Shown piece after piece: positions 9,470-60,475 of a stretch of 64,000 nt of DNA. The position numbers and the translations under genes were made by a program. Location of the stretch: the IMG/VR virus record IMGVR_UViG_3300042401_001180; one strand, 5' to 3'. The notes beneath the pieces were generated by a model. It saw only the letters and a program-made list of their open reading frames with translations, was not told the origin of the DNA and searched no databases. How positions within the stretch are numbered: position 1 is the stretch's first letter; every line of letters starts with the position of its first letter. Origin of the DNA: a virus. Taxonomy: Duplodnaviria; Heunggongvirae; Uroviricota; Caudoviricetes.

Positions 9470-9628
9470 TAAAATAACCACCCGTCATTAATAATGTAAA
9501 ATAAATTCCAAAACTAATAAGTGTAACCCAAAAACTATAATTTCCTGTTCTTTCTTTTCCGTGATAGTATAACCCAAATAGTAAATTAAGGATTAATAAC
9601 ACTAACATAATAATTTGACTTGTTCCCA
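9470..9628 (-). CDS. small membrane protein (52 aa), not in ORF track
   Basis: Manual translation MGTSQIIMLVLLILNLLFGLYYHGKERTGNYSFWVTLISFGIYFTLLMTGGYFN. Two hydrophobic helices. Confidence 0.3.
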
Positions 9629-9648
9629 TAATTTTGTTTTTTTTTAAT

Positions 9649-10677
9649 TTATTTATTAAATCCCACTTTACCCGATCCTTTAATTGTTGGTGTTTTTTTC
9701 AAACCTTCAAGGTTATTGATTGTTTCTTCAAAAGTTCTACCCATAACAATAACCGAAATTACAACTTCTTTTAAGTGTGACAAAGACATTCCTTCAGTTT
9801 TTTTAATCCATTCTTCAATGTCAATGTTTTTTAAATCATCATCATTTAATTTATGTTGGATGTACGCTCTTCTGATATCTTCGTTTGGTAGTTCCACTTT
9901 ATACCTTCTATCAAAACGGGATGGTCTGTTTGTAATACGTTCCTGTAGTTTTTCAGGGTAATTGGTTGTTGCAATATAAACAACACCTTCAATTTGTTTA
10001 ACACCATCAAGGATGTTTAATAGTCTTGCCGTTTGGTATCTGTTTTCCCCCGCCAAAGAATCTATGTCCTCTAATAAAACTACTAATGGTCGGTTTGGTT
10101 CAACTTTTCTAAACGTTGCAATAAATGATGTGAATTTATCTACATCGTCTTCATCCTTAACGTTTATAACGATACCATCCTTTTCAATTAGTTGTTGTGA
10201 TATCAATTGTATAATACCTGATTTACCACACCCCGGCTCACCATACATTAAAATACCTCTTTTATGTATGTAGTTGTATTTTTTATAATTGTCAGCTCTA
10301 TTCCAAAAATTATCAATATCCTTTAAGATATCAGTAATTTCGTATGATGGTAAATGATATAACTCATCGGTTTTAAACGGTTGTTTCTTTAATGTGTGGG
10401 TTCCCATATTTGCATTCCAACCAATCTCATAAACACCAGCAGGTACTTTTGGTACTGTAGGATATGCTGGCGCGTACTCATCATTTTTTAGATTACTCCA
10501 ACAAGATGGAACGTCAACATCTTTTTTATCCTCATATTTTTCTGAATTTAATCTTTTACGAATAATTGGTTCATCCAAGCTTAAATCATCGTCCATAATT
10601 TCAATCGTTTCTTCAATATATTCTTCGCTCATATTGTTTTTTTTTAATATTTCTTTTAATTGTTTTTTCCAATCCAT
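9649..10677 (-). CDS. AAA+ ATPase
   Basis: Walker A GEPGCGKSG, Walker B VVLLEDID, sensor-1 TTN. Confidence 0.75.
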   Translation of the reverse strand: MDWKKQLKEILKKNNMSEEYIEETIEIMDDDLSLDEPIIRKRLNSEKYEDKKDVDVPSCWSNLKNDEYAPAYPTVPKVPAGVYEIGWNANMGTHTLKKQPFKTDELYHLPSYEITDILKDIDNFWNRADNYKKYNYIHKRGILMYGEPGCGKSGIIQLISQQLIEKDGIVINVKDEDDVDKFTSFIATFRKVEPNRPLVVLLEDIDSLAGENRYQTARLLNILDGVKQIEGVVYIATTNYPEKLQERITNRPSRFDRRYKVELPNEDIRRAYIQHKLNDDDLKNIDIEEWIKKTEGMSLSHLKEVVISVIVMGRTFEETINNLEGLKKTPTIKGSGKVGFNK

Positions 10678-10850: not shown

Positions 10851-11049
10851 TTTTTTTATTATTAAACGACGACATTATTACACCATATTCTAAAATCAAT
10901 AAAATTATTCTACCCCATATACTAGTTATTAACCACCAATTAAGTGGGTTAAAATCAAAATATATTAAAGAAAATATAGCATACCACACAAAGTTTAACG
11001 TGAGGAATTCCGTTATCTTTAACCCTAAAGGTTTTTTTTCTTCAATCAT
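10837..11049 (-). CDS. small membrane protein (70 aa)
   Basis: Two hydrophobic segments. Confidence 0.4.
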   Translation of the reverse strand: MIEEKKPLGLKITEFLTLNFVWYAIFSLIYFDFNPLNWWLITSIWGRIILLILEYGVIMSSFNNKKNEKN

Positions 11050-11288
11050 CTTAAAACAAAATTATGGATAACAATTACTAACTCTTCAATTCTATCTGTT
11101 TTCATAATAACAGATCTATCTTCTTTTACTACAATATCCATCAAACCCAAATCCTCTTTTAATCTATCGGATTGTACTTTAATTTCTTTTTGAGCATCTT
11201 CATAACTTTTAAAGAACCCGAAGTATGAGTCACAATTTCCTGTTTTATCACATACTCCATAAATAATTTCTCTTGCTGGTTGTATCAT
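11046..11288 (-). CDS. hypothetical protein (80 aa)
   Basis: ORF. Confidence 0.4.
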   Translation of the reverse strand: MIQPAREIIYGVCDKTGNCDSYFGFFKSYEDAQKEIKVQSDRLKEDLGLMDIVVKEDRSVIMKTDRIEELVIVIHNFVLR

Positions 11289-11310
11289 AATTTTAATTTT
11301 TTATAAGTTT

Positions 11311-16653: not shown

Positions 16654-17907
16654 TTAACGTCTAAATCTGAATTCGGTTTCTATTTTTCTTTTACCGTGTT
16701 TTTTCTCCATTATCTTTTGGTGTAAGTCCCAATCAATAATTGATTCATTTGTTTGTTCTTTTTCGTCAGGAATAAGTGAATAAATTTTACCGAGTCTTTT
16801 AATTAGTTTTGTTGAAACATAATTAAATCTTTCACACTCATCAACAAAGAACTGTTCTTCTTTATTTTGATATCTAGCAAGGTGACTTAAAAACTTGTGT
16901 CTAACTTTTTGAAGTCCTTCGTCGTCGCCATTATCTTTTACCATATGACCCATACCTAACATTCTCATAAATCCAGCAATTTTACTATTACTATCCTCTG
17001 TCATTCTATCAAAAATATCTCTTTTAGAGTTTATTAAATTGACGTAAACCAAATTCATAATTGTTTTTATTTTTTCCTCCTCATCCATATTTTCATACGG
17101 TACACCAGCATGTTCCAATAAAGCATCAATTCTATCCATTTGTTCGTATAGTTTTTCAATTAAATTTTCATAACTAAAATCTCTAATTTCTTTTAGTTCT
17201 TTAATAACTTTATCATTTTCAAAAAAGTCTTTAAATTGTTCCCTTGTAATATTATTTAATTTCATTCTTGTTGCCATTTCAGTTGGTCTAACAAGGTTCT
17301 CAACATATTGGATGAAATAACTATATCTCATAAATTCATTAATAACAGGAATTCCGAAGTTTAACCCTGAACTTGAGTATGCTTGGTAATCAGCGTCTTT
17401 ACCTATCAAGTCAGTTGTCTTTTTTTGTTTATCAAACTTATGTTTAATTTCGTGAGCAATTACAGATATCAAATCCACTCTATCTCGTCTAAAAAAGTCA
17501 TATACCTCTTTAGCGTTCCAATCATCACCACTTGACACAAAACTTAACTGTAACTCAATAGTGTTGTCCGATTCTTGAATCTTCATTAATATTTTTTTAT
17601 CAAAATTAAATTTGTTTGCAACTCCAGCAGACGCCATAACTAATGGTCCGTCGTAGTCATCCATCTCGTTAATTTCAACAAACAATTCTAAATCATTTAT
17701 TTTATAATCGGATATTGTTAAATCTAAATTATCTTCAGTAAATGTTTGTCTTGTGTCGTAATCATCCATACCTTTTAAAAGGTTTAAGATTATTTCGTAT
17801 AGTTCTTCTGCAGATTCAATAATCCCTTCTGGAACACCAACAGCCTCACTTAATAGATTTTTTACTATTAAACTCATTTGGTTTTCGGTTATAATAATTT
17901 TTGCCAT
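16654..17907 (-). CDS. hypothetical protein with HExxH motif (417 aa)
   Basis: IAHEIKHKFD is a possible zinc metallopeptidase motif. N-terminus MAKIIITENQMSLIVKNLL belongs to the shared N-terminal motif family. Confidence 0.5.
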   Translation of the reverse strand: MAKIIITENQMSLIVKNLLSEAVGVPEGIIESAEELYEIILNLLKGMDDYDTRQTFTEDNLDLTISDYKINDLELFVEINEMDDYDGPLVMASAGVANKFNFDKKILMKIQESDNTIELQLSFVSSGDDWNAKEVYDFFRRDRVDLISVIAHEIKHKFDKQKKTTDLIGKDADYQAYSSSGLNFGIPVINEFMRYSYFIQYVENLVRPTEMATRMKLNNITREQFKDFFENDKVIKELKEIRDFSYENLIEKLYEQMDRIDALLEHAGVPYENMDEEEKIKTIMNLVYVNLINSKRDIFDRMTEDSNSKIAGFMRMLGMGHMVKDNGDDEGLQKVRHKFLSHLARYQNKEEQFFVDECERFNYVSTKLIKRLGKIYSLIPDEKEQTNESIIDWDLHQKIMEKKHGKRKIETEFRFRR

Positions 17908-18100
17908 ACATATAAATATATCGTAATATTTTTTTAAAAAAGTAGTATTTTTTCTACTTATAAGATATTTATTAATATGAGAAAAAAATTAAATAAAGAA
18001 GATAAACGAGTTAAAATTTCAATCACATTATCTCCAAATATTAATAAAAAAATGGAAGATAGTCTAATAAACAAGTCAAAATTAATTGAAAAACTATTAA

Positions 18101-18697
18101 TTGATTACTATGGAAACAAAATATAAAGTTTATATAATAAAGTCATTGGTTAATGATAAAATATATATTGGGTATACAAAACATTCATTAAAACATAGAT
18201 TATCTACGCATTTTAGAAATGCCAAAAAAAATTCAATGGTTAATAACAAATTTGCAAGAGCCATACTGAAATATGGTTTGGATAATTTTACTATTAACTT
18301 ACTTTATGAGTGTTCAGACAAAAATGATGCGTTAATAAAAGAAGTTTTTTTTATTAATCAATACGATTCATATAAATTAGGTTATAACTCAACAGTAGGG
18401 GGTGAAGTCGGTTCACCTAATAAAAACCACGCAGACTTTTCGGGTGAAAAAAACCCATTTTACGGTAAAAAACACGATTTAGAGACAAGGAAAAAAATAG
18501 GACAAAGAGAATATAAAACAGGTAAAGATCATATGTGGCATGGAGTTAAACATAAATCTTCATTCAAAGAGGGTGAGGAACACCCTCTCGCAATACAAAT
18601 AACGATTGGTGGTGTGAAGTATGGTTCAATATTACAAGCATGTAAAATACTAAACCTTAGTCGTTGTAAGGTAATTAAATTATCCGATAACCCCTAA
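18101..18697 (+). CDS. GIY-YIG homing endonuclease
   Basis: YKVYIIKS...IYIGYT GIY-YIG core with NUMOD-like NPFYGKKH. Lone plus-strand gene inside a minus-strand array. Confidence 0.7.
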   Translation: MITMETKYKVYIIKSLVNDKIYIGYTKHSLKHRLSTHFRNAKKNSMVNNKFARAILKYGLDNFTINLLYECSDKNDALIKEVFFINQYDSYKLGYNSTVGGEVGSPNKNHADFSGEKNPFYGKKHDLETRKKIGQREYKTGKDHMWHGVKHKSSFKEGEEHPLAIQITIGGVKYGSILQACKILNLSRCKVIKLSDNP

Positions 18698-44289: not shown

Positions 44290-44309
44290 ATTTTTCCGTT
44301 TTGATTTAT

Positions 44310-44319
44310 ACAAAGATAG
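44310..44319 (-). promoter_or_regulatory. Bacteroidetes-type -7 box
   Basis: Minus strand CTATCTTTGT (TAnnTTTG). Confidence 0.4.
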
Positions 44320-44359
44320 GTAAAATACTTATACCGCCAAACATATTGGTAAAAAAATA

Positions 44360-44430
44360 ATAAAATTTGTGATTAGTAAAGGATTCGAACCAATGACACG
44401 TCCATAAAATGGATTGCTCTAACCAACTGA
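44360..44430 (-). tRNA. tRNA-like gene, possibly Lys(TTT); weak anticodon and T stems
   Basis: Acceptor GGTTAGT/ACTAATC and D-arm GCTC/GAGC are good, with a GGTTCGAATCC T-loop. The anticodon loop ATTTTAT is closed by only 3 bp. Confidence 0.4.
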
Positions 44431-44517
44431 GCTAACTAACCATATAAAATATAAATAATAATATTCAGGTTGTCAATAATTCACATACATTTTAAATACT
44501 AAATATATTTATTTTAT

Positions 44518-45150
44518 ATGAAAAATATAATCAAAAGAGTTTTAAAAGAATTTGTTGAATCAAAAGATATTACACTGCAAGAGATTTTTATAGATCCTTA
44601 CAATTTAATTTTATCTGAAGGTAAGTCTTTTGTAAAAATACCAAACGGTACCGAATCAATATTATTAAGAAAAATAGAATCATATTATAATTGGCCACCA
44701 ACAGTAAATAAAATATGGTGTTCCGATATTAAAGAAAAGTTTAAGGAAGGTATACCTATAAAGTCATGTTTAAAAAAGTTTGAATTAAGTTTAACAAATC
44801 ATTGGATTCAAAGATTGTTTAGAACAAGTGAGGACGATTATAAATTGTTAAACCCTCGAACAGGTAATGTTGGTAAGTTTTATAACCCTTCTATTGTTAA
44901 TCCTGATATTTTTGAGGGTATTGAGTTATTTTTTAACAGTAAAGATAAGATTAATGATTTTATTGATAACTCAAAAAACTGGATTCCTTTAAGTGATAAA
45001 TTCATAATTTTAAAGTCAAAATCCTATCAAACAATTATAGAATTAAAAAAAATGGATCAGGGAACATATAGGGTAATATTCATAACACAAATCAAAGGTG
45101 TTCCGTTTTTTGATACCCCTGAGTTGAAAAAATCAAGATTAATAAAATAA
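44518..45150 (+). CDS. hypothetical protein (210 aa) with MKNIIKRVLKEF N-terminal family motif
   Basis: ORF followed by a terminator. Confidence 0.5.
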   Translation: MKNIIKRVLKEFVESKDITLQEIFIDPYNLILSEGKSFVKIPNGTESILLRKIESYYNWPPTVNKIWCSDIKEKFKEGIPIKSCLKKFELSLTNHWIQRLFRTSEDDYKLLNPRTGNVGKFYNPSIVNPDIFEGIELFFNSKDKINDFIDNSKNWIPLSDKFIILKSKSYQTIIELKKMDQGTYRVIFITQIKGVPFFDTPELKKSRLIK

Positions 45151-45152
45151 AA

Positions 45153-45185
45153 AAGGTGGGTTACCCCACCTCAGTTACACTTATT
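45153..45185. terminator. rho-independent terminator (minus-strand sense strongest)
   Basis: aaaaaaGGTGGGttaCCCCACC. The minus strand is followed by TTTTTTATTTT. Confidence 0.6.
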
Positions 45186-45405
45186 ATCGTCAAATGTACG
45201 ACGCCTGTTGGGTACTTACAGGTGAACCGATGATTACCGTCTTTCGACGTATTCGGGGGTACATCCCTCCTTTTCAATCACCCCACTAACCCCTAAAGGT
45301 TGGTGGATGACTTTTTATATGGAAAATCATAAAACCATTATCTCAATTCGATACATCAAAGATATATGTATTATATATAAATTCCAAACTTTTTAGTAAA
45401 TATTT
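45186..45405 (-). ncRNA. ORF-free, GC-enriched structured region (candidate ncRNA, function unknown)
   Basis: Nested hairpins (CGTCaaatgtaCGACG, CCGAtgattaccgtctttcgacgtatTCGG, GGGatgtaCCC). No ORF. Sits between the terminator and tRNA-Met. Confidence 0.3.
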
Positions 45406-45409
45406 TTTG

Positions 45410-45483
45410 TGGTCCTTGTTGGAATCGAACCAACCACCTACTGATTATGAGTCAGTTGCTCTAACCGAATGAGCTAAAGGACC
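45410..45483 (-). tRNA. tRNA-Met(CAT) (or Ile-LAU; anticodon CAT)
   Basis: Acceptor GGTCCTT/AAGGACC, D GCTC/GAGC, anticodon stem ACTGA/TCAGT with loop CTCATAA, T stem GTTGG/CCAAC. Confidence 0.8.
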
Positions 45484-45644
45484 TAATTGGTGGAGATTTG
45501 ATGCCAACGTATGATCACCCCTACGTCTCGTTTCTGCGTATTCGGTACTCCACCTTTGTAAGTTCCTCTTACTTACACCCCCATTCGTGGACTTTCCGAC
45601 ATCCCAATGGTTTTTACCGTCCTATCGGAGTCAGGTAACCGCTG

Positions 45645-45722
45645 ATGTCAGGGTGGGATTCGAACCCACAATGAACAACCTTTTTACGGGACTTGGTACC
45701 ATACCTCATTACACTCCTGACA
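45645..45722 (-). tRNA. atypical tRNA-like element (perfect 7-bp acceptor and T-arm, no canonical anticodon arm)
   Basis: Acceptor TGTCAGG/CCTGACA and T-arm GTGGG-TTCGAAT-CCCAC. The 44-nt internal region does not give a 5-bp/7-nt anticodon hairpin. Confidence 0.35.
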
Positions 45723-45887
45723 AACTTCGACTCTTCAGCTTTCTACTCCCAGCACCGAGGAATTGTATATAACTTAGCCCATCTCACCGCTGTGTGGGAA
45801 CTGAAGTTTATCGTCTTTTTCTTATCGTAAAGATAAACAATATAAATAATATAAACAATAATGGTGTCATAATTTTTTAAGTTTTTG

Positions 45888-45987
45888 TAGTCAGGACAGG
45901 ATTCGAACCTGTATGGTAATTTTTTCAGTACCTCCACAACCCATGGATTTACGTGGTCTTTGCGTCTACCAATTTCGCCACCTGGCT
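45888..45987 (-). tRNA. atypical 100-nt tRNA-like element (Leu-like 5' half GCCAGGTGGCGAAATTGGTAGACGC)
   Basis: Acceptor AGCCAGG/CCTGACT (one mismatch), Leu-like D-arm, T-arm ACAGG-TTCGAAT-CCTGT, variable-arm-like hairpin GGTActgaaaaaatTACC. The anticodon region is non-canonical with a 15-nt loop. Confidence 0.35.
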
Positions 45988-46320
45988 ATGTTGAGGGTGA
46001 GAAGCCCTCTGTGTTGTTGACTAGTTTAACCTACCCTAAAGTCATTTTAGGTACAACCGTTTTCTGTTTACTATGATGGTAAAGCTTTCACCACAAGGGC
46101 CGGTCTTCGTCAGCTCAATATCTATCCCTTTCTCAAGGGAACAACACAATATTGTTGATAGTGTTGGGATACCCGTCTCGTCCCAATCTTAACTGCATCG
46201 TCTGAGTTTTCTCAGGGCCCTCGGCAGGGGGTGCTGAATTCCTGATCCACTCAGGATTGTCGACATCCGTTGAGATGGGGGAAAACCACTATCAATATTT
46301 TCAAAGAACTTTTTTCCTTA
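45988..46320 (-). ncRNA. GC-enriched ORF-free structured region (candidate ncRNA; tmRNA or other not confirmed)
   Basis: ~330 nt with local GC well above the genome background (e.g. cagggccctcggcagggggtgctgaattcctgatccactcaggattgtcgac). Immediately downstream of promoter repeat copy 1. No ORF. Confidence 0.35.
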
Positions 46321-46380
46321 TTTGTTTAACAAAGATATGTAATCTATTTCAATCTACCAAATCTTTTTTTACTTTTTTTT
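46321..46380 (-). promoter_or_regulatory. repeated strong promoter module, copy 1 (A-rich UP-like tract, -33 TTTG, -7 TATCTTTG)
   Basis: Minus strand aaaaaaaagtaaaaaaagaTTTGgtagattgaaatagattacaTATCTTTGtt. Near-identical to 47640..47700. Confidence 0.55.
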
Positions 46381-46546
46381 GTGGGACCCGCTCCCCACAC
46401 TGAACTTGTACTTCGTTCTATTAAGCGTTTTTTTCAGTTTTTTTAACCAATCAGTATTCGTGTTAGTTTTAACAAATTTAAATCTTCCTGATTCGCAAGT
46501 TCCTGATAAAACTTCTCTCATCATTCATTTGTATTAATTGTTTATT

Positions 46547-46619
46547 TGGTGGACACTGTGGGAATCGAACCCATACGATCTGATTGCAAATCAGTCGACC
46601 TGCCGTCGGCATCAGGCCC
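46547..46619 (-). tRNA. tRNA-like element with encoded CCA; anticodon loop contains TTGCAA (Cys-GCA or Ala-TGC); acceptor stem does not pair
   Basis: T-arm ATGGG-TTCGATT-CCCAC and a 3' end AGTGTCC-A-CCA. The 5' region GGGCCTG... is not complementary. Possible pseudo-tRNA or part of a larger RNA. Confidence 0.3.
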
Positions 46620-46624
46620 ATTTG

Positions 46625-46696
46625 TGCGGGTAGAATGAATCGAACACTCATCTCCACATTGGAAGTGTGGAGTAATAACCATTATACGATACCCGC
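46625..46696 (-). tRNA. tRNA-Gly(TCC)
   Basis: Acceptor GCGGGTA/TACCCGC, anticodon stem CCACA/TGTGG with loop CTTCCAA, T-arm GAGTG-TTCGATT-CATTC. Confidence 0.8.
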
Positions 46697-46702
46697 TTAT
46701 TG

Positions 46703-46795
46703 TACTGACGGTTGGATTCGAACCAACGTTTTAAACTTACCGCTACAGGCATAGATGATATAAGCATCCACTGGTACGTCAGCATAATCGTCAGT
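46703..46795 (-). tRNA. atypical 93-nt tRNA-like element (perfect acceptor ACTGACG/CGTCAGT and T-arm; candidate anticodon hairpin GGATG-CTTATAT-CATCT; 25-nt variable region)
   Basis: Folding gives anticodon TAT with one GU pair, an aberrant D-arm and a very long variable region. Confidence 0.35.
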
Positions 46796-46867
46796 CTTTC
46801 CTGACCGTCACCCCCAACCCACAGGTATGAACCCGTATCGTAGTAAAGCTTGGTTGGCTATTAGTTG

Positions 46868-46939
46868 TTGCAGGAGAAGGGTTCGAACCTCCGACCTCAA
46901 GGTTATGAGCCTTGCGAGCTACCACTGCTCTATCCTGCG
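46868..46939 (-). tRNA. tRNA-Met(CAT), initiator-like (C1xA72 mismatch)
   Basis: Acceptor CGCAGGA/TCCTGCA with a C1-A72 mismatch, D GAGC/GCTC, anticodon stem CAAGG/CCTTG with loop CTCATAA, T-arm GGAGG-TTCGAAC-CCTTC. Confidence 0.7.
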
Positions 46940-46960
46940 ATATACCATTTGTAGTTTAGT

Positions 46961-47000
46961 AGTTGACTCAAACTCTCGTTTCACCATCTTGAGTCAACAG
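46961..47000. other. perfect 10-bp inverted repeat hairpin (GTTGACTCAA-n17-TTGAGTCAAC)
   Basis: Read directly from the sequence. A second imperfect hairpin GGGAGTAGG...CCTACCCCC lies at 47075-47120. Confidence 0.5.
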
Positions 47001-47120
47001 GTTAATGCACTTTACGAGTTTCCCGTTTCTTACAACCACAATATTTTTATTTCAATGAACTTCTTCTGTCTTCACGGGAGTAGGACACCAACCTCTAACT
47101 TCCTACCCCCGTTCTCTGTC

Positions 47121-47165
47121 TTACAAAGATATGTAATCACTTTTGATTTGCCAAATTTTTATTGA
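47121..47165 (-). promoter_or_regulatory. repeated promoter module, copy 2 (-33 TTGgcaaatcaaaagtgattacaTATCTTTG)
   Basis: Shares the TATCTTTGTAA -7 region and an upstream A-tract with copies 1 and 3. Confidence 0.5.
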
Positions 47166-47655
47166 ATAAAACTTCCCCTTCTTTCATATATTCCTTTTTC
47201 ACTTTTTCAATCAAGGATTTTAAAGCAGTGTTACCTTGTGCTGTTTTTTTAAGATCCTCAAGTTTAGGGTTACCTTTAAAACCAACCTTAGTATAAGACG
47301 TTCCGTTTTCTTTACCCCACACAATGTTAGTTAAACACAATTTGTCGATTTTCTTTTGTTCCTTTTCTTTTTCTTTCTCGAATAAAAGATTATCAATAAC
47401 TGAATCGAGTGTTTGTGGATAATCAAATTCTTTGGGTAAAGTTTTACAATAGTTATAAACCTCGTTTAAAACTTTAGACATACCTTCATAAGGTTGAACA
47501 TTTGTATTACCACCGTGTCCGTCATTTTGAGCATATGCAGTTTTTTTACCGTTTATAAAAACATCAGCCATAAAACAAGTAGTTTCTTCGCTAAACATTT
47601 TGTTAATCTTTACATTTTTAAGTTCTATTTTCATAATGTTTTTTTTGTTTATCAA
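47137..47655 (-). CDS. hypothetical protein (172 aa)
   Basis: ORF downstream of promoter copy 3. Confidence 0.5.
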   Translation of the reverse strand: MINKKNIMKIELKNVKINKMFSEETTCFMADVFINGKKTAYAQNDGHGGNTNVQPYEGMSKVLNEVYNYCKTLPKEFDYPQTLDSVIDNLLFEKEKEKEQKKIDKLCLTNIVWGKENGTSYTKVGFKGNPKLEDLKKTAQGNTALKSLIEKVKKEYMKEGEVLFNKNLANQK

Positions 47656-47700
47656 ATGTAAGTAATCTATTTCAATCTACCAAAACTTTTTTTACTTTTT
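47640..47700 (-). promoter_or_regulatory. repeated promoter module, copy 3
   Basis: Minus strand aaaaaaaagtaaaaaaagtTTTGgtagattgaaatagattacTTACATTTGat, about 90% identical to copy 1. Confidence 0.5.
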
Positions 47701-47706
47701 TTTCTG

Positions 47707-47790
47707 TAGTCCGGAAGGGACTTGAACCCTTAATCCCTCATGGGAATTTGATTTTAAGTCAAACGTGTATACCAATTCCACCACCGAACC
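47707..47790 (-). tRNA. tRNA-Leu(TAA)
   Basis: Acceptor GGTTCGG/CCGGACT (two GU pairs), anticodon stem TTTGA/TCAAA with loop CTTAAAA, long variable arm TCCCatgaGGGA, T-arm AAGGG-TTCAAGT-CCCTT. Confidence 0.75.
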
Positions 47791-47867
47791 ATTTTACCAA
47801 TATGTCAAAGAACCCTTCTTGTTTGTTCTACAAATATAAAACTTTTTTTCTATTCGCCAAACACCTA

Positions 47868-49641: not shown

Positions 49642-50586
49642 TTAAAAATCAATTCTTCCACTGAAATTTTCTAACTTGGTACATTCCCTCACTTCAACAA
49701 AATCGTCTTCCATATCAACAGATTCTCTTCTTTCTTCAACCGTTATGTCATTATCATCAAAATGATTTACATATACCTCAACGTTAAACGGTATTAGTTC
49801 ATCATCTTCTTCAATACTATTATAGTGTTCTAATGATATAAATTCTCCCTCATATTTTAAAAATCCATCACCTAACGTCACATTAACACTTCTTCTTATA
49901 CTATACTTCAAATCACTTGAGTCTAAATTTCCATCACCATCACAACTCCCACAACCATACTCACCATGTCCGGCACATTCTTCACACGAAAAATTTCCAT
50001 CACCATCACAATTAAAGCACTCTAAATTCCCTTTACCACTACAATCTCTACACTTTTCCGTACCATCACCATCACAATGAAAACATTCGACTTCTATTTC
50101 ATCCCCCTCATCATCTTCTTCTGTTTCAGTACCTTTACCATCACAGTAATGACAATCATCGATCCCTTCACCTGAACAAGTATCACAATCTATAGTACCA
50201 TCACCATCACACGAATCACAATCAATTCTACCATTACCATCACAATTCCCACAATGTTCACTTCCTGTACCATCACAATCATCACATTCAGCTTGTATAT
50301 GTACGGTATCTTCATATAAATCAATAATTGATGTATGTAAATTCATAAGAATCCCCTCTAACGCGGATAATTGGCTTTTTCTATTTAAAATAAAAAACGT
50401 AGCAATTAACACTTTAATTTTTTCTGGGTTACTACTTGTTTTGGATAATAATAGTTTGGCGAAATGATCAGTACTCATACACTTTTTAATATCACGAATT
50501 CCGATGAATCTATCTCCCTTTTCGCTTTTTAATAAATCTGCAATATTTTTTGATATTGAATATATTTTTTTAAATTCAGGTGTCAT
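49642..50586 (-). CDS. CxxC-repeat (DnaJ zinc-finger-like) acidic protein
   Basis: About 14 tandem C-x-x-C-(D/S)-G-x-G units (CDDCDGTG, CGNCDGNG, CDSCDGDG, CDTCSGEG, CHYCDGKG, CFHCDGDG, CRDCSGKG, CFNCDGDG, CEECAGHG, CGSCDGDG). Confidence 0.55.
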   Translation of the reverse strand: MTPEFKKIYSISKNIADLLKSEKGDRFIGIRDIKKCMSTDHFAKLLLSKTSSNPEKIKVLIATFFILNRKSQLSALEGILMNLHTSIIDLYEDTVHIQAECDDCDGTGSEHCGNCDGNGRIDCDSCDGDGTIDCDTCSGEGIDDCHYCDGKGTETEEDDEGDEIEVECFHCDGDGTEKCRDCSGKGNLECFNCDGDGNFSCEECAGHGEYGCGSCDGDGNLDSSDLKYSIRRSVNVTLGDGFLKYEGEFISLEHYNSIEEDDELIPFNVEVYVNHFDDNDITVEERRESVDMEDDFVEVRECTKLENFSGRIDF

Positions 50587-50626
50587 ATTTATAAATAGTA
50601 TTATAAAATAAAAAAACGTGTATTAT

Positions 50627-50974
50627 TCATACACGTTTCACTAACTCTGTTGGAACCAATCTTCTTAAAGGTATTCCGTAATTTGAAATAAACCAATCAA
50701 GAAGTAACCCTTCAGTTTGATCATCAAAATATCCTTCAATATCATTTATTAGTTCCATTGGACAATTCAAATCTCTACCGTGTCCAATATTATTAAAATA
50801 GAAAAATACAAAATATGTTATTTTAGTTTTACTATCCTTTAAATAAAATGTTATAGTATCCTCATTATAATCGTAACCTAACTTTAAATTATTTAATTGG
50901 GGATAAAACTTATCAATATAATCTGAAAAGGATTTTTCTAAACTCATAGTTGTTGAATTTGAATCATAATCCAA
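50627..50974 (-). CDS. hypothetical protein (115 aa)
   Basis: ORF. Confidence 0.45.
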   Translation of the reverse strand: MDYDSNSTTMSLEKSFSDYIDKFYPQLNNLKLGYDYNEDTITFYLKDSKTKITYFVFFYFNNIGHGRDLNCPMELINDIEGYFDDQTEGLLLDWFISNYGIPLRRLVPTELVKRV

Positions 50975-51237
50975 TCTACTTCTCCTTCCGATAAGTTACC
51001 TTTAACACCATCAGTTATATGTGTATCATAAGTAATATCATATTTTTTTTCATCCCCAAACAAAACAGCAATTTCCCACTCATTTTCATTTGATGTGTAA
51101 CTACCATAACCTCTATCACTATATGGTGTTTTATATCTTACAACAGAAATACCGTAACCATTAGGAAAAAATAATATTCCGTGTAACCCTTCACCAAAAG
51201 AATGGGGTTTAAATGTGATATCTTTAAATGATTTCAT
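50944..51237 (-). CDS. hypothetical protein (97 aa)
   Basis: ORF. Confidence 0.45.
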   Translation of the reverse strand: MKSFKDITFKPHSFGEGLHGILFFPNGYGISVVRYKTPYSDRGYGSYTSNENEWEIAVLFGDEKKYDITYDTHITDGVKGNLSEGEVDWIMIQIQQL

Positions 51238-51406
51238 AATTAATTAAATAAATATTTTTTGTGTTTTAACTTTCTATTATATAGATTCTTTGGTGTCTCA
51301 ACTCTTGACACAAATCTCCCATCAAAAAATCCCGCCTCAAGTTGATCCTTTCTTACCTGAGTTCTTTTCATTCTATGTTGGTCATATGTTTTCATCTTGT
51401 TTTTTT

Positions 51407-51820
51407 TTACAAAGATATGATTTTTTTTAAATTATCCCTTTCTTGATCTCGTTTTTTAATTGTTTCTCTTTTATCGTATAGTTTTTTACCTCTACCAATA
51501 ACAATAACCATTTTTATTAATCCCTTGTCGTTGGTGAATATTTTATATGGTACAATTGTTAATCCTTTATCCAATCGTTTACTGATGTCCTTTATTTCCT
51601 TTTTATTCAAAAGTATTTTAATGTCTCGTTTCTCGTCTGTTGAAGTTATGTTGATGTTTCTAACGTACATTTCATTATTTTTTAAATAACAATATGTATC
51701 GACAATGCTAACCTTATTATTTTTTATGGATTTAACCTCATTACCTACCAATACAACACCGCATGTGTATTTTTCAATAATCTCATACTCAAAACCTACC
51801 TTTTTGTTTGTTATTAACAT
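51407..51820 (-). CDS. smpB: SsrA-binding protein SmpB homolog
   Basis: Residue pattern NKKVGFEYEIIEKYTCGVVLVGNEVKSIK...SIVDTYCYL...RKLLL..KEI..L.....GLTIVPYKIF.....IKMVIVIGRGKKLYDKRETIKKRDQERD matches the conserved SmpB fold signature (EVKS, GKKxxDKR, basic tail). Confidence 0.7.
   Translation of the reverse strand: MLITNKKVGFEYEIIEKYTCGVVLVGNEVKSIKNNKVSIVDTYCYLKNNEMYVRNINITSTDEKRDIKILLNKKEIKDISKRLDKGLTIVPYKIFTNDKGLIKMVIVIGRGKKLYDKRETIKKRDQERDNLKKIISL
51408..51417 (-). promoter_or_regulatory. Bacteroidetes-type -7 box
   Basis: Minus strand ATATCTTTGT. Confidence 0.35.
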
Positions 51821-51833
51821 TGTTTAATTTTTT

Positions 51834-51914
51834 GTACCCCCGGAGAGACTCGAACTCTCACGCCCTTCGGCATCAGATCCTAAATCTGACATGTCTACCA
51901 TTCCATCACAGGGG
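51834..51914 (-). tRNA. tRNA-Leu(TAG)
   Basis: Acceptor GCCCCTG/CGGGGGT, anticodon stem TCAGA/TCTGA with loop TTTAGGA, long variable arm, T-arm GAGAG-TTCGAGT-CTCTC. Confidence 0.7.
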
Positions 51915-51923
51915 CATTTATTT

Positions 51924-51995
51924 GAGCTCAGGGAGGGATTTGAACCCACATACCAGGCGTTTGCAGTGCCGGACCTTACCAATCGGACACCTGAG
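51924..51995 (-). tRNA. tRNA-Cys(GCA)-like (short anticodon stem)
   Basis: Perfect acceptor GCTCAGG/CCTGAGC and a T-arm TTCAAAT loop. Loop CTGCAAA is closed by a 3-bp GGC/GCC stem. Confidence 0.45.
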
Positions 51996-52001
51996 CATAT
52001 A

Positions 52002-59069: not shown

Positions 59070-59105
59070 ACATCAAAGATAGAAAAAAAACTTTAATGCA
59101 CAAAA

Positions 59106-59150
59106 AAAATGGATACAAATATTATCTGTATCCATCAATTTTTTTCCTTA
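59106..59150. terminator. bidirectional rho-independent terminator
   Basis: aaaaaaaaTGGATACAaatattatcTGTATCCAtcaattttttt. Confidence 0.6.
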
Positions 59151-59159
59151 TAAGATTTT

Positions 59160-60150
59160 AAACCTAAAAATAAAAACCTGAGATTACAGTTTTTGTTGAG
59201 AACCTTTCGAGTCATTATTGTTTCTACTCTTATCCACCATCTTTTGAATGGTATTTCTCAGTGACGATTATTTAGGTGAATCACTCCTTGAGGTACTAGT
59301 TACTCTCTCATTACTCAACTCTCTTCGAGACTGCCGTCCCAACTCTTCCTTGCGGGAATAGAGGTTTTTGGTAAGAATATAGGTCAACTTGCGGTCTTCC
59401 TATGCAATGAACAGCTCATTACTATGTAGTCACCTTTCACTATTACCTGACGAACACTTTTGCTTTTTAGTTTTAGTTTTACCTTTTCCATAAAAGTTTT
59501 TGTGTTGTGGATTGATAGAAGTAGTGGTCCGTCACGGGCTTCGTTATCTTTTGAACAACGAAATACTCAACTACTCCTTGAAATGTCCCCATCTCAATAT
59601 TTCAAGACTACTTCGAGATTTAACCTTTGGTAAGGTTCAATCAAGGTTAGTAACAACACCACTTGTACACCAACATACCTTTCGGTTTTAAGTATCCTAT
59701 CATAATGGAACACGCAATAATAAAATCGGATAATCTTATTTTTTGCAATACCCCTACGAGTTATTCCTTTTGGTGTTCCCACCTCAAACTGACAACCCAC
59801 ATTGCCAATTCATCTAACCACTTTCCCTACAGCGTTGCCCTCGGTACTAAAGATTAAACGGTATCCCGCTTGTGTACTCGATCTCGACAAATCCGAAGAC
59901 TCACCAAGACGCAAATCAGTTACACTTCTGACTCACTTTATCCTACTTTCGTAGTTTATTTTAATGGACCATACACGGCCCAATGACTTAATTTAGTTTC
60001 ACACATAAAGAAAGGGAGGTGTTAAGTCTCATCTTTTAATTGTGACGACCGTTTCAGTCGGATTTAGATTTTCAAAGAACGTTTCAGGACTTTTCCTGAT
60101 TTGTTTTACAAATTTAAGTCTTTTTTTTCATTAAGACAAGTGTTTGTGAA
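59160..60150. ncRNA. ~1-kb ORF-free, GC-richer region: candidate large structured RNA / intron-like / origin element (unassigned)
   Basis: The track has only short spurious ORFs here. Composition is clearly less AT-rich than the flanks (e.g. gactgccgtcccaactcttccttgcggg). Bounded by a terminator upstream and a T-rich tract downstream. Confidence 0.3.
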
Positions 60151-60156
60151 CTTTTT

Positions 60157-60306
60157 TTTTTAAACTTTTTCTACGTACACCTCGTGTGTTCCGTATTTAG
60201 TCGCTTGAGCAGATGCAAACTCACTGTTAGGTGTGTAAAACTTCTCCCCTTTTGCTCCGTAGTAGAAAAACATTACGTTCTCCACAACTTCAGTTTCTTC
60301 ACTCAT
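60157..60306 (-). CDS. small hypothetical protein (49 aa), not in ORF track
   Basis: Manual translation MSEETEVVENVMFFYYGAKGEKFYTPNSEFASAQATKYGTHEVYVEKV. Confidence 0.3.
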
Positions 60307-60475
60307 ATTTTAAGAGTTTAAAGGTTAATATTTCAACTTATTATTAGGACGTTTCCCAATTGTTTAACAAATCTAATTATATTAAATTGTTTTGTCAAAT
60401 GTTTAAATGAAAAAAATTGATTTTTTTACGGAAGTAAATATAAATATAACTATGTTTGGTAAAATACAAAAAAAA

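Follow-up and report, generated by a model that had tools for sequence, protein, structure and literature searches.

A phage-encoded SmpB with a shortened central loop, kept within a tRNA island in which no transfer-messenger RNA was found

Introduction

Transfer-messenger RNAs (tmRNAs) and SmpB, the protein half of the two-part ribosome-rescue machine, have both been listed among the genes of huge phages (Al-Shayeb et al. 2020, PMC7162821). The locus analysed here, an open reading frame (ORF) of 137 amino acids (aa) in a 64,000-nucleotide (nt) stretch of the tailed-phage record IMGVR_UViG_3300042401_001180 (the whole stretch is called the window below), had been taken for smpB in a preliminary description made from the sequence alone. 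It raises a simple question: if this phage supplies an SmpB, which tmRNA does the protein work with? We find that the ORF at 51407..51820 is an SmpB by its sequence, that it keeps an intact C-terminal tail and has lost half of its central loop, and that the tmRNA carried by sister phages appears to be missing from this lineage, which leaves the tmRNA of the host as the likeliest partner.

Results

The ORF at 51407..51820 encodes an SmpB with an intact C-terminal tail

The 137-aa product matches the Pfam family PF01668 with an E-value of 9.8e-39 and 133 bits (cut-off 27) over positions 2-140 of the 143 profile positions, and it reaches 139.5 bits with the NCBIfam equivalog model TIGR00086 (cut-off 119.1) and 132.5 bits with NF003843 (cut-off 130). 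A phmmer search with the phage protein retrieved 15 distinct SmpB sequences of solved structure, the top match being Thermotoga maritima SmpB (7ljp, E=4.5e-33). The AlphaFold2 model, for which 25 clade members served as input, is of moderate confidence (mean predicted local distance difference test score, pLDDT, of 72.6) and predicts an OB-type β-barrel with flanking helices. When this model was submitted to Foldseek all 19 PDB matches at E ≤ 0.001 were SmpB chains, with TM scores of 0.51-0.69 and a root-mean-square deviation of the core of 2.1-2.7 Å across ~110 residues. Thus, by every sequence test run, the ORF is a genuine SmpB. The assignment made in the preliminary description is borne out by the Pfam, TIGR00086, NF003843 and PDB matches; each of the motifs that it had named (EVKS, GKK, DKR and IKKRD) was found in the ORF, and the comparison with SmpB profiles and reference SmpBs gave scores exceeding the curated cut-offs.

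The C-terminal tail (GRGKKLYDKRETIKKRDQERDNLKKIISL) comprises GKK-Y-DKR and a basic helix of normal length. In an alignment of 25 phage relatives G111, K113, K117, R118, K122, D125 and R128, which cover the GKK and DKR motifs, are invariant, and the site matching E. coli His136 is always occupied by Y, F or H. The aromatic residue at this site has been assigned to EF-Tu activation, and DKR together with the basic helix that follows it to accommodation and peptidyl transfer (PMC4151336). Since the key residues are invariant within the clade and have these assigned roles, the tail is not degenerate. A decoy role, which had been tied to a degenerate tail in the preliminary description, is not supported, as the tail is complete and hardly varies within the clade.

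The ratio of non-synonymous to synonymous substitution rates (dN/dS) of smpB is 0.05-0.12 in comparisons with L006 and L007, two related loci of the same tRNA-island subclade, and with L010, from a sister lineage, synonymous changes being saturated, as they are against L008 and L011. On this measure smpB is kept under strong purifying selection in this lineage.

No tmRNA is found in the window

The search for a tmRNA covered the 64-kb window, ~9.7 kb past coordinate 64000 (L206) and 1.3 kb before coordinate 1 (L210), i.e. 75 kb of a genome of ~292 kb. ARAGORN was run at default and relaxed thresholds, and at the default threshold it reported 21 tRNAs and zero tmRNA on the window. Rfam scans against all families, among them the models for standard and permuted tmRNAs, covered stretches of 64 kb, 3.6 kb and 0.33 kb with E ≤ 10 as the limit; on the 64-kb window no tmRNA family matched at its gathering score (47 bits for RF00023), nor at E ≤ 10. 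In the 3.6-kb search the two matches to RF00023, at 46547-46619 (17.4 bits) and at 46700-46792 (9.5 bits), stayed far under 47 bits, and the weak matches of this model over 46700-46830 amounted to 9.5-10.9 bits. Across all 75 kb, blastn with the relatives' tmRNAs returned T-arm-sized matches only, and so did nhmmer (--max), run with a profile of these tmRNAs that included the conserved tag region, its matches all having E > 0.02.

The preliminary description had seen no recognisable tmRNA nearby, in agreement with both ARAGORN and Rfam, and had suspected that one might be hidden in 44300-47200 or 59100-60200. Neither ARAGORN at its default threshold nor the Rfam covariance models found a tmRNA in these regions, and 59100-60200 turned out to be occupied by a GOLLD RNA, the core of which scores 323 bits (cut-off 150, E=9.9e-92) over model positions 1-416 of 416 and the 5' extension of which, to ~60360, is kept in 45 other loci. 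Because ARAGORN, Rfam, blastn and nhmmer are all negative and 59100-60200 is GOLLD RNA, a hidden tmRNA in either region is rejected.

Sister phages carry a tmRNA that appears to be missing from this lineage

L010, a 296-kb contig whose SmpB is 77% identical to that of the window, has a tmRNA of 103 bits (Rfam) at 17718-18114(-), 7.3 kb from smpB. L013, with an SmpB of 55% identity, has one of 84.5 bits at 10900-11294(-), 0.5 kb from smpB, and in L074 a tmRNA of 101.5 bits stands in a row with ROOL RNA and smpB. ARAGORN misses some of the copies that Rfam finds, the one of L010 among them. The expectation that a phage with smpB should carry a tmRNA therefore holds for the sisters L010 and L013, where the two genes are 0.5-7 kb apart, but not for the window.

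The tmRNAs of L010 and L013 belong to a family whose conserved 34-nt block occurs in at least 120 IMG/VR stretches (L086-L205), 114 of them with the tmRNA at full length. G3:U70 is kept in the copies inspected (L010, L013), and the family encodes a conserved tag of ~21 aa, GNVL(N/D)K(M/L)..GL(V/I)R..EV.VA*, unlike the short alanine-terminated tags that ARAGORN gave for tmRNAs of other viral contigs. As smpB lies in the fetched flanks of only 7 of 120 tmRNA loci, tmRNA and smpB are not tightly linked. The tmRNA is found close to GOLLD RNA, at a distance of 0.1-4.6 kb in 47 of the 55 fetched GOLLD loci; a full-text literature search for GOLLD together with tmRNA retrieved no report of this linkage. 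The eight GOLLD loci without a nearby tmRNA are those of this phage (the window, L001, L002, L206 and L207) and of L008, L011 and L012 from the same tRNA-island subclade, and in this phage the GOLLD-adjacent slot is empty for at least 13 kb on both sides.

L212, a relative of 290,362 bp whose non-coding island segments are 76-93% identical to those of the window, has a tmRNA at 9541-9964(-), with the gene order GOLLD, tmRNA, 351-aa protein, M20 peptidase, ClpC-like ATPase. No smpB is present between its tRNA-Leu(UAG) and tRNA-Leu(UAA), and the fetched 21 kb gave no SmpB match.

The usual flanks of the phage tmRNA (L135 1485-7755; L212 10001-14501) contain a protein of 350 or 457 aa without a Pfam match, an M20/M42-like peptidase and a ClpC-like double-AAA+ ATPase, to which a rhomboid protease is added in L135. 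This neighbourhood suggests a phage-borne module for tagging and proteolysis. The three commonest tmRNA-flanking families (the largest one, the 350/457-aa family and the ClpC-like ATPase) have no homologue in the window.

The gene adjoining the phage tmRNA was used as a marker for the part of the genome beyond the window. Its two forms, of 350 aa (L135) and 457 aa (L119), served as queries and yielded 94 and 47 clusters, so that this indirect test rests on 141 cluster representatives and on the members of 20 of the 141 clusters. Judged by matching sizes, 11 contigs carry both an L010-type SmpB and the 350-aa gene (296330, 309766, 194937, 97362, 96896, 64533, 62327, 41199, 19986, 12612 and 7993 bp). 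The contigs of this phage (292252, 270513, 218196 and 132493 bp) are absent from the 141 representatives and from the members of the 20 clusters. A metagenome scan with a 40-nt block common to the L010 and L212 tmRNAs gave 80 matches, the contig of L010 itself not among them; the collection thus evidently lacks the recent JGI samples, and the scan is uninformative for this phage. On balance we consider it probable that the phage is without a phage-type tmRNA module.

Our preferred explanation, to which we give about even weight, is that of a working phage SmpB using a tmRNA encoded outside the window, most likely that of the host. SmpB would be made from the tRNA-island transcript as an auxiliary ribosome-rescue factor and would bind the tRNA-like domain (TLD) of a full-length tmRNA, as cellular SmpB does. 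Where ribosomes have stalled because an mRNA is broken or has no stop codon, the C-terminal tail would then enter their empty A site and mRNA channel, and the stalled ribosomes would be recycled during infection. We infer both the rescue activity and the use of the host tmRNA; the latter is the likeliest partner because the phage-type module is missing from its usual positions and the marker gene was not detected on this phage's contigs. Several points weigh against this explanation. A phage tmRNA could sit in the ~215 kb of the ~292-kb genome outside the 75 kb searched; the marker test is indirect, took in the members of 20 of 141 clusters, and a tmRNA could exist without its marker neighbour; the central loop of the protein has half the normal length, so that its activity with a host tmRNA could be impaired or altered; and the phylum of the host is itself something that we infer.

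The strongest competitor, possible though distinctly less probable, is that SmpB works with the phage's own phage-type tmRNA, encoded in those ~215 kb. The same short-loop SmpB (77% identical) is accompanied in L009/L010 by a tmRNA with the conserved tag, the two genes are seldom adjacent in the group, and L212, which shares the non-coding RNAs of the island, has a tmRNA, all of which would fit a gene located elsewhere in the genome. Against this stand the empty slot next to GOLLD, which is filled in 47 of 55 loci, the lack of any homologue of the tmRNA-flanking families in the window, and the marker, which 11 contigs of the L010 lineage carry and which was not found on those of this phage.

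The central loop of the phage SmpB is shortened by half

Between the strand end ..NIT and (R/I)K(L/I)LL the phage SmpB has a segment of 8 residues (TSTDEKRD). All 13 loci of the clade share this length; 43 other viral loci have 14 residues here, and each of the 67 parsed cellular SmpBs has 16. A gap at this place appears also in the alignments to 7ljp and 1j1h, and the Y..G...NH.P motif of the central loop is gone. According to the alignment with T. thermophilus SmpB the shortened segment probably corresponds to the flexible central loop, an oddity that the preliminary description had missed. The central loop has been implicated in alanylation and EF-Tu activation (PMC4131195), and its loss is on record for Carsonella, Hodgkinia and hemoplasmas (PMC4131195; PMC3968760).

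A loop of 8 residues, where cellular SmpBs have 16, and the functions ascribed to this loop could point to a different role, in which the protein, as a modulator or decoy, would attach to stalled ribosomes or to the tmRNA of the host and damp or redirect trans-translation, for example to spare phage proteins from being tagged for degradation. There is a precedent for interference in a TLD-only RNA, which reportedly inhibits tmRNA, perhaps via titration of SmpB (PMC4131195). We regard this role as improbable. A simple tmRNA sponge would not need the tail residues that serve A-site entry and peptidyl transfer, which here are invariant and under strong purifying selection; the short-loop SmpB coexists with a phage tmRNA with a conserved tag frame in L010-type phages, which argues for a working pair; and endosymbionts with a loop-less SmpB are thought to keep some function (PMC4131195).

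The tRNA-like elements of the island are probably atypical tRNAs

The tRNA-like elements that the preliminary description had listed, at 46702-46795, 45888-45987, 45645-45722 and 46547-46619, do exist, and these aberrant elements are best read as atypical tRNAs (Table 1). ARAGORN calls the 45888-45987 gene in intron mode only, as His(GUG) with a 15-nt intron, and reports 45645-45722 as Leu(UAA) at 90% of its threshold. No support was found for a tmRNA, whether standard, permuted or two-piece, among these elements, the best that Rfam offers being the 17-bit TLD-like match to the 73-nt gene at 46547-46619.

This 73-nt gene is the most tmRNA-like element of the island, with G3:U70, A73 and an encoded CCA (GGGCCUG...CAG(U)GUCC-A-CCA). 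G3:U70 and CCA denote alanine identity, which is common to tRNA-Ala and tmRNA, and therefore do not discriminate between the two. The minimum free energy structure is a cloverleaf in which a 3-nt loop closes the 4-bp D hairpin and a single bulge interrupts the 8-bp anticodon stem; with this 3-nt D loop and 8-bp anticodon stem it scores 18.6 bits against the 29-bit threshold of the tRNA model RF00005. Neither an mRNA-like domain nor a resume codon, a tag frame or pseudoknots are found in the element, which is only 73 nt long. Considered as a TLD-only tmRNA, it is scored ahead by the tmRNA model in the 3.6-kb search and slightly ahead by the tRNA model (18.6 bits at 46547-46619) in the narrower, 0.33-kb one.

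Homologues of ~90% identity occur in L088 and L157. Their anticodon loop is still UUUGCA(A/C); in the extended stem an A:U pair has become U:A, a compensatory change, and in the D hairpin a G-C pair has become G.U. ARAGORN calls the L157 copy tRNA-Ala(UGC) at 90% of its threshold. Both L088 and L157 have a full tmRNA and no smpB within the fetched flanks. The element is cleanly absent from L212, and in L001, whose SmpB is identical to that of the window, it is chimeric and broken. Comparison of L001 17097-17170 with window positions 46619-45888 reveals a deletion of ~630 bp, across which the Ala-like element's 5' part is now fused with the 3' end of the tRNA-like gene at 45888-45987, a fusion that apparently arose by recombination between the T-loops of the two elements. 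L006 has an ordinary tRNA-Ala(UGC) downstream of tRNA-Gly with a non-coding RNA (ncRNA) segment of ~280 nt in between, and a 'freshwater-1' RNA (RF02979, 85 bits) lies between these two tRNAs at L006 13781-13842. In the window the atypical Ala-like gene follows directly after tRNA-Gly, unlike in L006 with its freshwater-1 RNA at this place. As the comparative data fit an atypical tRNA-Ala, the TLD-only reading is rejected, and the best reading of 46547-46619 is that of an atypical tRNA-Ala which would not be the partner of SmpB.

The possibility that the short-loop SmpB no longer uses a full tmRNA and pairs instead with this Ala-type RNA, as a message-less tRNA-like domain, is very unlikely, and so is its consequence, namely that the pair would add alanine or rescue ribosomes without a tag, or would block tagging by the host. 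Such a pairing could draw on G3:U70, A73 and the encoded CCA, on the near-equal scores of the tmRNA model (17.4 bits over positions 1-374, with the interior deleted) and the tRNA model, on the maintenance of the element with one compensatory change in L088 and L157, and on mycobacteriophage DS6A, which has a TLD-only tmRNA (PMC4131195). The evidence nevertheless weighs against it: the anticodon loop UUUGCAA is conserved, as for a decoding tRNA; a D hairpin is present, which tmRNA does not have in its tRNA-like domain (PMC3968760); L088 and L157 combine the element with a full tmRNA, without smpB in the fetched flanks; L001 combines an identical SmpB with a broken copy; and an ordinary tRNA-Ala is located downstream of tRNA-Gly in L006.

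Six unclassified ncRNA segments lie between the tRNAs of the island. Five of them are kept at 73-97% identity in 4-9 other phage loci, and 45408-45160 matches L001 only. Several are preceded by a Bacteroidota-type promoter of their own. None of the six matches an Rfam family at E ≤ 10 and none is tmRNA-like; relatives with a normal one-piece tmRNA keep these segments as well. A permuted or two-piece tmRNA in the ORF-free regions of 44300-47200, as proposed in the preliminary description, is effectively refuted: the permuted tmRNA that ARAGORN calls at 46547-47023, with the tag ANQALLRYGFIPVGWG*, appears only at or below 85% of the threshold and overlaps three real tRNA genes (Met with 64.4 bits and Gly with 63.2 bits in Rfam, Ile in ARAGORN only), its tag is implausible, being placed within a 71-nt spacer and without the typical hydrophobic (Ala/Val-type) terminus, the permuted model RF04321 yields only a 15-nt fragment (9.1 bits, E=9.4, in the 0.33-kb search), and the segments are conserved in relatives that have a one-piece tmRNA.

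Genomic setting and host

The preliminary description placed smpB next to the tRNA island of a large phage; its setting was confirmed and can be narrowed, the gene lying within the island (Table 1). Because only 13 nt separate the 3' end of tRNA-Leu from the start of smpB, smpB is probably transcribed on the same precursor as tRNA-Leu, and we take it to be co-transcribed with the tRNAs. The region 50613..51395, with three small ORFs and a terminator-like hairpin, is the probable end of this transcription unit. The gene order tRNA-Cys, tRNA-Leu, smpB is found again in L006, L007, L008, L011 and L012.

Table 1. Features of the tRNA island, the smpB locus and the GOLLD locus (window coordinates)
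Feature	Position	Strand	Remarks
smpB coding sequence	51407..51820	(-)	ATG start, 137 aa, full C-terminal tail, central loop of 8 residues
tRNA-Leu(UAG)	51834..51915	(-)	ARAGORN; Rfam tRNA 53.4 bits; 3' end 13 nt upstream of smpB start codon
tRNA-Cys(GCA)	51924..51996	(-)	upstream of tRNA-Leu; Rfam tRNA 43.9 bits; ARAGORN at 90% threshold
Three small ORFs after smpB	51240-51395, 50944-51237, 50627-50974	(-)	called after smpB on other contigs too
Terminator-like hairpin	50613-50639	(-)	first on this strand after smpB
tRNA-Ile(UAU), enlarged variable region	46702..46795	(-)	94 nt; ARAGORN; 75-nt standard version in L001
Atypical tRNA-Ala(UGC)-like gene	46547..46619	(-)	73 nt; tRNA 18.6 bits, tmRNA 17.4 bits, both sub-threshold
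tRNA-like gene with insertion	45888..45987	(-)	100 nt; identity ambiguous; Rfam tRNA 34.3 bits (threshold 29 bits)
Sub-threshold tRNA-like element	45645..45722	(-)	perfect acceptor stem and T arm; Rfam tRNA 21 bits
Unclassified ncRNA segments	47136-46940, 46866-46796, 46320-45988, 45887-45723, 45644-45484, 45408-45160	(-)	between tRNAs
GOLLD RNA (RF02032)	59175..60360	(-)	core 59175-59578; promoter 60368-60399
Bacteroidota-type promoter sites	44311-47861, 59074-59104, 60368-60399	(-)	

An identical SmpB protein is found on contigs of up to 292 kb, including contigs of 270,513 and 132,493 bp, and the nearest viral relatives are contigs of 290-310 kb. In a megablast comparison of 16 kb of the window with GenBank phages only tRNA-sized matches were obtained. 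The Bacteroidota promoter motif TTTG-N17-21-TAnnTTTG was found 17 times where 4.6 copies are expected, a number reached in 0 of 100 shuffles; six copies within 44311-47861(-) precede tRNAs or non-coding segments and one precedes GOLLD. The closest cellular SmpBs, at no more than 50% identity, come nearly all from Bacteroidota. Because the motif is enriched and the nearest cellular SmpBs are mostly from this phylum, two independent hints, this phage of ~290 kb probably infects a member of the Bacteroidota.

Beyond smpB, a 314-aa ORF at 49642-50586(-) contains repeated CxxCxGxG motifs of the DnaJ-type zinc finger, and a DnaJ homologue is located ~10 kb past the end of the window (L206 1-718). 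The phage therefore carries chaperone-related genes near its translation island. Among distant SmpB-carrying viral contigs, three have a tRNA with a CUA anticodon that ARAGORN labels 'Pyl' (L035 3636-3708, L043 3173-3246 and L044 11578-11652), which hints at amber suppression or stop-codon recoding there; no such tRNA is present in the window.

Discussion

The phage protein resembles cellular SmpB in its profile scores, which exceed the cut-offs, in its predicted β-barrel, in the GKK, aromatic and DKR motifs and in a basic helix of normal length. It differs in being at most 50% identical to any cellular SmpB, in having a loop of 8 instead of 16 residues without the Y..G...NH.P motif, and in its setting, as the gene is encoded by a phage within a tRNA island and has no tmRNA nearby. 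The huge phages offer a second comparison. A tblastn search found the SmpBs of the Lak phages (MK250015-29) and of the 735-kb phage LR756501 at 42-50% identity. Their genomes, too, are very large and hold many tRNAs and genes for translation. They represent, however, another lineage, with nucleotide similarity limited to tRNA fragments, and their matches span ~142 codons per 134 query residues and thus appear to keep the longer loop, whereas in our phage the loop is short and no tmRNA was found in the 75 kb searched. SmpB is therefore already on record in huge phages and the presence of the gene alone is not new; a full-text search of the literature retrieved nothing on phage SmpB more specific than the huge-phage listing.

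A parallel to a shortened SmpB kept without a visible partner comes from Carsonella, Hodgkinia and the hemoplasmas, in which the loop is lost or reduced and the β-barrel is kept. In some of the lineages with a loop-less SmpB, constraint on smpB is not relaxed even though no tmRNA gene could be detected (Hudson, Lau and Williams 2014, PMC4131195). These are reduced genomes of endosymbionts and parasites, not phages; half of the loop remains in the phage protein, and the tail, which is lost in Carsonella, is intact. That phages can carry the RNA of trans-translation is known from the Bxz1 group of mycobacteriophages and Bacillus phage G, and from DS6A with its TLD-only version (PMC4131195), and the relatives L010, L013 and L212 do so as well. 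The window differs in having no tmRNA, its sole Ala-type tRNA-like gene being a 73-nt, sub-threshold element with a D hairpin and a conserved anticodon loop.

What is new is threefold. In this lineage smpB has been retained under strong purifying selection, and yet the phage tmRNA of its sisters appears to be missing, so that smpB is apparently uncoupled from a phage tmRNA here. Its SmpB has lost half of the central loop, which is kept in every cellular SmpB examined. And related phages share a large tmRNA family with a conserved 21-aa tag, located beside GOLLD RNA and genes for Clp-type proteases. Natural SmpBs with a shortened loop could help to define the function of the central loop. If the phage SmpB indeed works on the tmRNA of its host, this phage would offer a clean example from nature in which a virus contributes the protein half alone to a rescue machine made of two parts.

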